Of a stretch of 64,000 nucleotides of DNA, positions 26,538 to 29,039 are shown piece by piece. Origin of the DNA: Dictyostelium discoideum (Eukaryota). A program made the position numbers and the translations under genes. The stretch is from assembly GCA_000004695.1 (NCBI GenBank), contig CM000151.3, positions 7,936,001 to 8,000,000 on the forward strand. The letters are read 5' to 3'. Positions within the stretch are counted from its first letter, which is position 1; each line of letters opens with the position of its first letter. The notes under the pieces are model-generated. The model had not been told where the DNA came from. It searched no databases and saw nothing but the letters and a program-made list of their open reading frames with translations.

Positions 26538-27218
26538 TTAATAACCTAAAATTTTTTTAATTAAAATAATAGTTGTGTTTCTTTTTGGTCCCATAGCATT
26601 ACCAAATTTAATTTGAGCAAAATTTTGAACGATACTACCGGCTACACCAGGGTAAGCTTTTCTAGCCCTAACAGATTCACATTGGTAACAGAAACCAGTA
26701 GCTCTTTTAACACCATCGGATTCAGATTCAACGATTTTATTAAGACCAGCAACAACAATTAGGTTATTTGCGGCTGTGAAACCCCCAACACGTGTACCGG
26801 AAGCGTCGGCCACAAAAAGATCACCTTGTTTTGATATAGCTCCTACAGAACTAAGGAAGTAGTCGCATGCCAACGCATGTTTTCTAAGAATAATTTGTTT
26901 TCCAGAATCAGTTTCTGCAAAGATTTTCTTGTGTAAATTATCCCATTTATGGTTATCGGAAAAGTAATATGATTTGAATCCAATTTCATCGAGTGTTACA
27001 CTACCTGCACCCATAACTGTGCTTTTGTCTGGTATCATCTTTTTAATTTCTTCCAATGCAGTTTCTTCATTATCTACCAATAATACTTTATGATTTTTTG
27101 ATTCTAATGATTTAATAGTTTCGTTTAATAATTCTTCTGATGGCATGAGTCTAAATTTTTCTGCATTTTCTGGTTTAAAATCTGGTTCTAATTCATACAA
27201 TTCTTTATATCTATACAT
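26538..27218 (-). CDS. LUD/LutC-like (DUF162, YkgG family) bacterial-type protein, copy A (226 aa), intronless
   Basis: Single ORF with ATG at 27218. GC content is clearly above the local background. The G..G/GxR..G core (AISKQGDLFVADASGTRVGGFTAANNLIVVAG) and the GP+R..I+LI terminus resemble LutC/YkgG. Confidence 0.55.
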   Translation of the reverse strand: MYRYKELYELEPDFKPENAEKFRLMPSEELLNETIKSLESKNHKVLLVDNEETALEEIKKMIPDKSTVMGAGSVTLDEIGFKSYYFSDNHKWDNLHKKIFAETDSGKQIILRKHALACDYFLSSVGAISKQGDLFVADASGTRVGGFTAANNLIVVAGLNKIVESESDGVKRATGFCYQCESVRARKAYPGVAGSIVQNFAQIKFGNAMGPKRNTTIILIKKILGY

Positions 27219-27684
27219 TTTGTTTATTACTTGGTTTTTTTTTTTTTTTTTTTTTTTTATTATAATTATTAATTGTATTTTTAGTGTGGTATTTAAGTAA
27301 ATAAATAAAAAAAAAAAAATTAAAAAATTTTTTTATTTGTATTTTTTTTTTTTTTTTTTACATATGTATAATTTAATTTAATTTATATTTTATTTTATTT
27401 TTTCAAAACCAAAAGGTAATATCTAACATTCGTGAATATGAAAATTTTTTTTTTTTTTTTTTGAATTCTGGAATCTTTTTTTTTTTTATTTTTTAACATA
27501 AAATAAATTTTTATGGGAAATTTTAAAAAAAATATTAAAAAAAAAAGGTAAAAAATAGGTAAAAAAAGGTAAAAAAAAAAGGTAAAAAAGGTAAAAAAAA
27601 AAAAGATAAGGTAAAGAAAAAAAAAAAGATTAAAATTATTTCTTTTTTTTATTTTTAATTTGTTGAACGATACGGACAAAAATT

Positions 27685-27719
<35 letters not shown>

Positions 27720-28364
27720 TGATAAATTTGAAAACAATTAAGATATATAGGTATGCCACCTTGTTGGCATTCAACAAATTGCAATTCGGTTGACATTGTC
27801 ATTTTTTAGAGGTGATTGTATAGCTCTTGAGGAAAAAAAATTATGATCATAATTTTTTTATTTAGTTTTGAAGGTAAATATTGAATAGAAACTCTGGGAT
27901 TTCTTCTCTCCATCTGAAAACTCGCTCTCCATTTTTCATTAAAAAAGTAAAATAATATTTTTGGAGGCAAAATGACCTCCCATTAAAAGTTGGAACAATA
28001 AAAAATAATAACAGATAAACAGCAGGTAAGAATGAAGTTACTTGGGCACACCTTAAAATTTTAATATTTTTTGATTAATTTTTAATTTTTTTTTTTCATT
28101 TTTATATGTTATCTATCGTAACAATTATCTTTTTTTCTTTTTAAACATTTTATTTAATTTCAATATAAATTTTAACTTTAATTAGAATAATCTTTTTATC
28201 TACCAATTATTTGGATTAAAAGGAAAAAAAAAAAATTATTAATCTAAAAAATAAAAAAAAAGAAAAAAAAAAGAAAAATTAATTTTTAAGTTTTATTGGT
28301 AGAATAAAAAAAAAAAAAACTATAATTTTTTTAAATTAATAAATAAAAGTTTATTTTAATTTTA

Positions 28365-29039
28365 TTAATAACCAAGAGCTTTCTTGATTAAAATAATATT
28401 TGTATTCTTTGGACCAAAGACACTACCGTGATTAATTTGAGTGAAATTGGCTACGACACTTCCTGGTACACCATAAGCTTTTCTTGCTCTAACAGATTCA
28501 CATTGGTAACAGAAAACAGTTGCTCTTTTAACACCATCGGATTCAGATTCAACGATTTTATTAACACCAGCAACAACAATTACGTTATTTGAGGCTGTGA
28601 AACCCCCAACACGTGTACCGGAAGCGTCAGCCACAAAAAGACTTCCTTGTTTTGATATAGCTCCGACAGAACTAATGAAGTAATCGCATGCCAATGCTTT
28701 CTTTCTTAAACCACCTTGACTGGCACCATCTTTTTCATCTAAAATCTTTTGATGTAAGTTATACCATTTATGTTCATTACTGAAATAATAGGATTTGAAA
28801 CCAATTTCATCGAGTGTAACACTACCAGCATCCATAACTGAACTACCATCTGGAATAAGTTTTTTAATTAATTCCAATGCTGATGCTTCATCTTCAACAA
28901 CATGAACTATATGGTTTTTTGATTCTAATGATTTTACAGTTTCATTAATTAATTCCTCTGTAGCATTACTTCTAAATTTTTCAGCATCATCAGCTTTAAA
29001 ATTTGGTTCTAATTCAAAGAGTTGATTATATTTGTACAT
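28365..29039 (-). CDS. LUD/LutC-like (DUF162) bacterial-type protein, copy B (224 aa), intronless
   Basis: Paralog of 26538..27218. About 75% aa identity and over 90% nt identity in the central 200 bp. Same strand, about 1.1 kb away. Confidence 0.55.
   Translation of the reverse strand: MYKYNQLFELEPNFKADDAEKFRSNATEELINETVKSLESKNHIVHVVEDEASALELIKKLIPDGSSVMDAGSVTLDEIGFKSYYFSNEHKWYNLHQKILDEKDGASQGGLRKKALACDYFISSVGAISKQGSLFVADASGTRVGGFTASNNVIVVAGVNKIVESESDGVKRATVFCYQCESVRARKAYGVPGSVVANFTQINHGSVFGPKNTNIILIKKALGY

Follow-up and report, generated by a model that had tools for sequence, protein, structure and literature searches.

The LUD domain is predominantly prokaryotic and is predominantly found alone (Hwang 2013, PMC3924224). 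Its bacterial examples include LutC (YkgG/YvbY) and the LUD domain of LutB (YkgF/LldF), which belong to the LutABC proteins of L-lactate oxidation, and residues Y55, H201 and R204 of DR_1909 have been proposed as the LutC cavity residues (Hwang 2013, PMC3924224). The Dictyostelium discoideum gene DDB_G0277411 was listed, as DUF1121, among 16 remaining candidates for horizontal gene transfer (HGT) from bacteria, together with its D. purpureum ortholog 39626 (Sucgang 2011, PMC3188802, Table 2). This list had been carried over from Eichinger 2005 (PMC3188802) and is repeated in a 2026 preprint. Here we analyse DDB_G0277411 (gene A) and its neighbour DDB_G0277409 (gene B) in a stretch of 64,000 nucleotides of the D. 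discoideum AX4 genome (contig CM000151.3, positions 7,936,001 to 8,000,000), referred to below as the window. Both genes, the presence of a LUD domain in them and the HGT hypothesis for DDB_G0277411 were already known, and the added value of the analysis, which is modest, lies in a corrected HGT status and a gene conversion tract.

The explanation that probably accounts best for the locus as a whole is that A and B are tandem copies of a stand-alone LUD gene of an old eukaryotic family, and that their core has been homogenised by gene conversion. The LUD family has long been resident in eukaryotes, namely in dictyostelids, other Amoebozoa, zoosporic and zygomycete fungi and Paulinella, rather than being a recent bacterial import, and dictyostelids carry two old subfamilies, the A/B type and an intron-bearing “prespore-specific” type. 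The A/B type would have duplicated in tandem between the D. purpureum and D. firmibasis splits, and a tract of approximately 200–225 bp over the catalytic-looking core was homogenised between A and B, with an AT-to-GC bias, after the split of D. discoideum and D. citrinum. The array may still be dynamic, given a single copy in D. firmibasis and degenerate extra fragments in one D. cf. discoideum strain.

The translations of A and B are exact matches to annotated proteins of D. discoideum AX4 chromosome 2 (Table 1), so the annotated models of both genes are uninterrupted, intronless open reading frames (ORFs). Gene B lies upstream of gene A in the direction of transcription. An initial annotation made from the DNA letters had described two same-strand, intronless paralogs approximately 1.1 kb apart with about 75% amino acid identity, a core more than 90% identical in nucleotides and no poly-N/Q tracts, and each of these descriptions held. 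The proteins are 74% identical (168/226, E 1e-123), and asparagine and glutamine make up 8–9% of their residues, at the low end of the 0–54% found for the window ORFs. Along the coding sequence (CDS) the nucleotide identity of A and B is 73% over nt 1–342, 93% over the 225 nt of nt 343–567 and 70% over nt 568–681, and a repeat search pairs positions 26653–26952 with 28474–28773 (family D4). The similarity ends at the ORF borders, with neither the flanks nor the spacer aligning. The spacer contains no LUD relic or third copy detectable by tblastn with A, B, P0162 and P0010 as queries (the last two are relatives described below), which returned the two genes only; ARAGORN found no tRNA there, an Rfam search gave no match, and its ORFs are all of low complexity.

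Both proteins match the Pfam profile LUD_dom (PF02589) from end to end, as expected from the LUD/DUF162 domain proposed at the outset: gene A with E 1.2e-32 and 113.6 bits over profile positions 2–188 of 189, and gene B with E 2.2e-38 and 132.3 bits over positions 1–189 of 189, where the gathering cut-off is 22.6 bits. Together with the protein identity, these matches bear out that the two are tandem paralogs that arose by duplication. The fold is that of solved LUD proteins (ISOCOT, NagB/RpiA-like), and the AlphaFold2 (AF2) model of gene B has a predicted local distance difference test (pLDDT) score of 90.5; a sequence search of the PDB gave spurious matches only, all with E >0.01. Among 180 members of the subfamily, S73, T75, G80, S124, G132, G141, K161, R172, E181, R184 and G223 (gene B numbering) are conserved at 85% or more, and A and B carry all eleven. 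On this sequence basis the two proteins belong to a separate stand-alone LUD subfamily, formerly DUF1121.

Two kinds of search were made for relatives. A word-indexed search returned orthologs across the dictyostelids and a third D. discoideum paralog, and otherwise bacterial-looking proteins of approximately 207 amino acids with 30–36% identity. An exhaustive profile search gave 2,218 matches, 139 of them with E <1e-30, and here the best non-dictyostelid matches are eukaryotic. The named homologs come from Filamoeba, Cochliopodium and Flabellula in the Amoebozoa, from Synchytrium, Hyaloraphidium, Haplosporangium, Lobosporangium, Actinomortierella and Jimgerdemannia in the fungi and from Paulinella in the Rhizaria, and the eukaryotic groups represented outside Dictyostelia are other Amoebozoa, Chytridiomycota, Monoblepharidomycota, Mortierellomycota, Endogonales and Paulinella. 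No animal, plant or Dikarya homolog is found among the named matches. The Hyaloraphidium homolog has three introns and lies on a 722-kb contig. Another homolog, P0063, lies on a 200-kb environmental contig whose genes for ATG7, ribosomal protein L19e, Integrator subunit 2 (INTS2) and leishmanolysin mark it as eukaryotic. Some longer homologs are merged with heterogeneous domains (UCH, RanBP1, Erf4, AhpC, Pyr_redox_2); these look like merged gene models and are of use only as a marker of eukaryotic origin. The P0063 contig (JGI Ga0558118_00565, 201 kb; L005, L006) has two copies of the gene encoding an identical LUD protein, approximately 110 kb apart.

The third D. discoideum paralog is annotated as “prespore-specific protein” (UniProt Q9BI24, P0010) and is 54% identical. 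It resembles A and B in being of equal length, in having the same motifs and in falling in the dictyostelid clade. It differs from them in having one 82-nt GT..AG intron, in lying elsewhere in the genome, where it is present twice in AX4, and in belonging to a separate, older subfamily with orthologs in D. purpureum, P. violaceum and T. lacteum.

Reciprocal scoring with hidden Markov models (HMMs) places the dictyostelid proteins closer to other eukaryotes than to bacteria. A profile of non-dictyostelid eukaryotes scores them at 211–256 bits and a bacterial-type profile at 152–172 bits, a margin of 50 to 95 bits for the eukaryote profile. In the other direction, the dictyostelid profile gives the top scores to Cochliopodium (228 bits) and Filamoeba (219 bits), with the fungi and the best short prokaryotic form (168 bits) below them. 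Trees were built by bootstrapped neighbour joining (NJ), a distance method only, on L-INS-i alignments of labelled subsets. In these the dictyostelids are monophyletic at 92–99.5%, and are divided into the A/B type (100%) and the prespore type (87%). All sequences labelled as eukaryotic fall in a single clade, with 44–51% bootstrap, which is sister to an archaeal clade (77%) and a Chloroflexi, candidate phyla radiation (CPR) and spirochaete clade (70%). A Firmicutes/Deferrisomatales clade and E. coli LutB and LutC lie outside these. The dictyostelids therefore stand among eukaryotes and are not nested in a bacterial clade, on an NJ backbone that is weak.

The duplication can be followed in the close relatives of D. 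discoideum. Both A and B are present in D. discoideum, D. citrinum, D. dimigraforme and D. cf. discoideum. A protein kinase gene on one side of the pair is kept in D. citrinum, D. firmibasis and D. cf. discoideum, and a SAP-domain gene on the other side is kept in D. citrinum and D. firmibasis. Between these two neighbours there is one LUD gene in D. firmibasis, and the order is B and then A in D. citrinum and D. discoideum. D. purpureum 39626 is the basal branch of the A/B group in the trees, where the D. firmibasis gene joins B with 93% support, and on this branching the tandem duplication would be younger than the D. purpureum split and older than the divergence of D. firmibasis. The D. firmibasis gene (L018, CM069768.1 6001–6675) is B-like over its N-terminal 114 codons, with 88% nucleotide identity to B against 71% to A, and A-like over its last 35 codons, with 84% to A against 74% to B. 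It is possibly a B/A chimera formed by unequal crossing-over in the homogenised core, although the numbers involved are small.

One D. cf. discoideum strain (JBTAPH010000040.1; L019) has B (834–1508), then approximately 5.6 kb with two degenerate LUD fragments (2449–2743 and 5866–6257), then A (7106–7786). One fragment resembles the N-terminal part of A (94% identical, residues 1–65) and the other resembles B (residues 56–224), and part of this material has been merged into a 438-amino-acid gene model, ACTFIY_004333 (P0162). AX4 is without relics of this kind, so the copy number of the array varies among close strains.

The evidence for gene conversion comes from comparing orthologs and paralogs along the gene. 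In the N- and C-terminal parts D. discoideum and D. citrinum orthologs are approximately 87–91% identical and paralogs approximately 70–73%. Over codons 115–189 the order is reversed: A and B of D. discoideum are 92.9% identical with 60 of 69 synonymous codons the same, while the two pairs of D. discoideum and D. citrinum orthologs are 83.1% (42/71 synonymous) and 78.7% (35/70) identical. Sites that group the orthologs lie almost entirely outside nt 343–567 (72 of 74), and all 20 sites that group the genes by species lie inside it, between nt 360 and 564 (Fisher p 2e-18 for the partition). These informative sites bound the tract in gene A to CDS nt 360–564, which is 26655–26859 of the window. 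The tract thus has paralogs that are closer than orthologs, with flanks of normal orthology. The site partition and the synonymous codons strongly confirm the earlier suggestion of gene conversion, which homogenised the core after the split of D. discoideum and D. citrinum.

The states shared by the two D. discoideum copies are biased in direction, with 11 AT>GC changes, none GC>AT and nine neutral, and D. firmibasis polarises seven of the 11 as derived. The GC content of the core is 0.43 in A and 0.40 in B. GC at third codon positions (GC3) in the core is 0.27 in D. discoideum A and 0.21 in B, against 0.08 and 0.16 in D. citrinum and 0.13 in D. firmibasis. A conversion tract with an AT>GC bias accounts both for a core that is more than 90% identical and for its locally raised GC, and the GC-richer core is largely a by-product of the tract.

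Several points weigh against reading the pair as converted copies of an old eukaryotic gene. The monophyly of the eukaryotic sequences is weakly supported by the bootstrap values given above, and in a cruder NJ tree of 182 sequences the backbone is unresolved and bacterial short forms fall inside a grade of long forms, although that tree has been superseded by the bootstrapped trees of labelled subsets, which are better aligned. An archaeal protein, P0245, is as close to gene B (44% identity) as the nearest non-dictyostelid eukaryote. Several of the amoebozoan sequences come from transcriptomes and contamination is possible; yet eukaryote-type signatures are present in them. The eukaryotic distribution is patchy, so that ancient interdomain transfer with eukaryote-to-eukaryote spread cannot be separated from vertical descent with losses. 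Finally, the AT>GC bias rests on 11 sites and could reflect selection on codon usage instead of biased conversion.

The alternative that survives best is that one ancient interdomain transfer brought a stand-alone LUD gene from an archaeon or bacterium to an early eukaryote, no later than the ancestor of Amoebozoa and Fungi, and was followed by vertical descent, many losses and possibly transfer between eukaryotes, for example into Paulinella. The A/B duplication and conversion would be unchanged, so that this alternative refines the old-eukaryotic-family explanation rather than contradicting it, and we regard it as a real possibility that falls somewhat short of even. It fits the position of the eukaryotic clade as sister to archaeal and Chloroflexi/CPR groups with the Firmicutes-type forms outside, and the patchiness of the eukaryotic distribution. 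The identity of P0245, which lies on a compact contig with NucS, Tricorn, DRG GTPase and AglB genes, also favours it, as does the abundance of the gene in Halobacteria and their DPANN symbionts. Among named genomes the family was found throughout Halobacteria, in Nanohaloarchaeota/DPANN, in one Methanosarcinales metagenome-assembled genome, in Chloroflexi and in CPR bacteria. Against it, the present rooting, with very distant LutB/LutC outgroups and a backbone of 44–75%, cannot tell a transfer from vertical inheritance through an archaeal host. On this weak NJ backbone the deep origin may lie either in ancient transfer or in vertical descent from an archaeal lineage. We can tentatively suggest that the stand-alone LUD family was never transferred and is an ancient eukaryotic gene, possibly inherited from archaea, as its nearest prokaryotic relatives include an archaeal protein at 44% identity, and that it has been retained only in amoebae, early-diverging fungi and a few protists in a metabolic role independent of LutAB.

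In GTDB genomes (L024–L103) the long-form stand-alone LUD gene is near-ubiquitous in Halobacteria and is also found in their nanohaloarchaeal symbionts Nanosalina and Nanohalobium, a distribution that hints at exchange within the consortium.

An improbable alternative is that A and B are true LutC subunits that oxidise lactate with LutA- and LutB-like Fe-S proteins encoded elsewhere in the Dictyostelium genome; the initial annotation had taken the pair for orphaned LutC, which would imply a repurposed function. The family profile aligns to the LUD domain of YkgF, the E. coli LutB, with an hhalign E of 0.004 over 174 columns, and to YkgG, the E. coli LutC, with an insignificant E of 0.19 and a probability of 0.3%. 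Of 18 family positions conserved at 85% or more, YkgF has nine and YkgG has six. Both are distant outgroups in the trees, and the LUD domains of LutC and LutB share 12–16% identity with the A/B subfamily. These comparisons of profiles and positions show “LUD domain” to be a correct description, with no specific support for “LutC-like”. NCBIfam was uninformative as a test of LutC identity, having no LutC model and no match even to E. coli YkgG. In contrast to the LutABC proteins, A and B have no Fe-S domain and no adjoining LutA/LutB partner or operon: no gene for LutA (CCG) or LutB (LUD plus 4Fe-4S) adjoins either of them, the rest of the D. discoideum genome not having been searched. The examined archaeal and bacterial members of the subfamily likewise have no adjoining lutA or lutB, and the absence of these neighbours is therefore not a sign of an orphaned subunit.

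Even less probable is the published hypothesis, also that of the initial annotation, that a bacterial DUF1121/LUD gene entered the dictyostelid lineage after the divergence of Amoebozoa from animals and fungi and was later duplicated. The prokaryotic bias of the LUD domain (Hwang 2013, PMC3924224), the repeated listing of DDB_G0277411 since Eichinger 2005, the lack of introns in A and B and the lack of animal, plant or Dikarya homologs among the named matches all speak for it. However, homologs closer than any bacterial one are found in three other amoebozoan classes, in at least four early-diverging fungal lineages and in Paulinella, some of them on large eukaryotic contigs and with introns, so the gene is not absent from other eukaryotes as a dictyostelid-specific transfer would have it. 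The prespore paralog has a typical Dictyostelium intron, the HMM scores favour eukaryotes, and no prokaryotic clade encloses the dictyostelid one. The dictyostelid sequences lie instead in a broadly distributed eukaryotic clade, which is the placement that the initial annotation had itself named as counting against a transfer. HMM scoring, NJ trees and discrete characters agree, and at the level of sequence comparison a dictyostelid-specific transfer is not supported.

Composition does not point to a foreign origin either. The GC content of A and B is 0.33, against 0.22 for the whole window, and their GC3 is 0.20 and 0.18 respectively. Other window ORFs of at least 150 amino acids, with low-complexity repeat ORFs set aside, have a GC content of 0.19–0.37 and GC3 of 0.06–0.28, and the two genes are in the upper quartile of these ORFs without being outliers. 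Their third positions are as AT-rich as those of native genes. A GC content clearly above background, as noted earlier, thus holds only against intergenic DNA (0.11–0.15), the contrast being mostly one of coding versus intergenic DNA, plus a local excess of GC in the core. With GC and GC3 inside the range of the neighbouring ORFs and the extra GC concentrated in the conversion tract, the codon usage and composition carry no foreign signature.

Least probable of all is that the near-identical core reflects extreme purifying selection on an active site, acting at the nucleotide or codon level as well. The family's most conserved motifs are indeed encoded in the core, and the core proteins of orthologs are also 93–95% identical. 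However, synonymous codons are closer between the D. discoideum paralogs than between orthologs and 20 sites have a common derived base in both D. discoideum copies at which the D. citrinum copies, and usually D. firmibasis, differ, a synonymous-site pattern that contradicts this explanation.

The fold and the conserved polar residues suggest, tentatively, that the A/B proteins could act independently of the Fe-S proteins LutA and LutB, either binding or converting a small anionic metabolite, for example a hydroxy acid or phosphorylated compound. With low confidence, the binding site may be formed by the conserved loops of the NagB/RpiA-like (ISOCOT) fold, G-S-T-T, D-x-x-G-T-R, N-K-I-V and E-S-x-R. 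In A and B these appear as a G-S-T-T loop at a helix N-terminus, D-A-S-G-T-R, N-K-I-V, R172 and E-S-x-R. Gene context gave no functional lead, as no neighbour family occurs in more than six of 80 named prokaryotic loci. The spirochaete-type genes are divergent from an HxlR regulator and near tRNA synthetases, and unrelated genes adjoin the LUD genes of C. butyricum and of the archaeal P0245 contig. A search of the literature for the function or expression of DDB_G0277411, DDB_G0277409 and the prespore paralog yielded the HGT tables only and no expression data on A or B. The name of the third paralog suggests prespore expression or developmental regulation, and the paralogs may be deployed at different developmental stages.

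Two features of the prokaryotic members were seen in passing. In four of four metagenomic spirochaete-type loci (L011–L014) a 207-amino-acid LUD gene (6001–6624 of L011) is divergent from a gene for an HxlR-family regulator; the loci include two independent protein families (P0019, P0017), and GlnRS/GluRS is encoded downstream. A Cys-rich insertion, TPCAxxGxCxDC, follows the E-S-x-R helix in P0220, P0219, P0221, P0224 and P0273, and may be a metal or Fe-S site. Its carriers are Clostridium butyricum, Anaerovoracaceae and Deferrisomatales, the most distant stand-alone LUD clade, and it is not found in the eukaryotic, archaeal or Chloroflexi forms.

Table 1. Positions of the LUD genes, their conversion tracts and the flanking synteny anchors in the window
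Feature	Positions	Strand	Description
Gene A, DDB_G0277411	26538..27218	−	Intronless CDS, 226-aa stand-alone LUD-domain protein; XP_642590.1
Gene B, DDB_G0277409	28365..29039	−	Intronless CDS, 224-aa stand-alone LUD-domain protein; XP_642591.1
Gene conversion tract, gene A	26652..26876	−	CDS nt 343–567, codons 115–189; encodes the DASGTRVGGF...NKIV...ESVRARKAY core
Gene conversion tract, gene B	28474..28697	−	CDS nt 343–566; counterpart of the gene A tract
AT-rich spacer between A and B	27219..28364	.	1146 bp
Protein kinase gene	24642..26159	+	Flanking synteny anchor, outside the feature; Pfam Pkinase E 7e-60
SAP-domain gene	30950..31657	−	Flanking synteny anchor, outside the feature; Pfam SAP E 2e-9

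Elsewhere in the window, uninterrupted intergenic poly(A) runs of approximately 35–50 nt flank the gene pair on both sides (26232–26283 and 29955–29991); such runs are a typical intergenic feature of Dictyostelium. At 34780–35120 there is a G/T-rich tandem repeat with a unit of approximately 18 nt (GTGATTGTGTGTGGGGTT) in approximately 18 copies, with a GC content of 0.46 and a GC skew of +0.96. Long (ATT)n and (GTT)n runs surround this repeat, which is located immediately upstream of a homeodomain ORF (33118–34662, minus strand) and probably encodes a His/Thr/Pro/Asn-rich repeat on the minus strand.

The findings matter for three reasons. One of the 16–18 classic candidates for bacterial transfer in Dictyostelium can no longer be kept on the grounds by which it was listed, with homologs now known from other amoebae and early-diverging fungi, which calls for caution over the other entries of a list that was still repeated in 2026; if the gene is indeed an ancient eukaryotic one, “DUF1121” leaves that list. 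The locus also shows concerted evolution cleanly and on a small scale, biased from AT to GC in a genome of 22% GC, and on the same reading the D. discoideum pair would be a naturally occurring case of GC-biased gene conversion within a eukaryotic genome that is among the richest in AT. Finally, it marks a widespread and uncharacterised LUD subfamily, present in haloarchaea, some bacteria, amoebae and fungi, for which Dictyostelium, with three paralogs and easy genetics, is a good system.

Compared with the systems described so far, the locus belongs to the published set of D. discoideum HGT candidates (16–18 genes; Eichinger 2005, Sucgang 2011) and now shows neither the restriction to dictyostelids among eukaryotes nor the nesting in a bacterial clade. 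It differs from the concerted evolution of tandem duplicates by GC-biased conversion in the size of the sample, a single tract of approximately 225 bp whose bias could be explained by codon selection, and resembles it in having a contiguous species-grouping tract, ortholog-grouping flanks and an excess of AT>GC changes. There is also a likeness to the stand-alone LUD proteins of Halobacteria, DPANN, Chloroflexi, CPR and spirochaetes, which are single-domain proteins of approximately 200–230 amino acids with 35–44% identity to A and B and are likewise unlinked to lutA or lutB. They have in common with A and B the motifs GS(T)TL..EIG, D-x-x-G-(T/S)-R, G-x-N-K-I-V, R172, E-S/N-x-R and a C-terminal LG(Y/F). 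A and B and the other eukaryotic proteins differ from these prokaryotic forms in an N-terminal extension of approximately 20 amino acids with a conserved Leu7, in His43 where prokaryotes have Phe, in Thr142 (GTR, against GSR in prokaryotes), in a longer C-terminal loop and, in some eukaryotic members, in the presence of introns.

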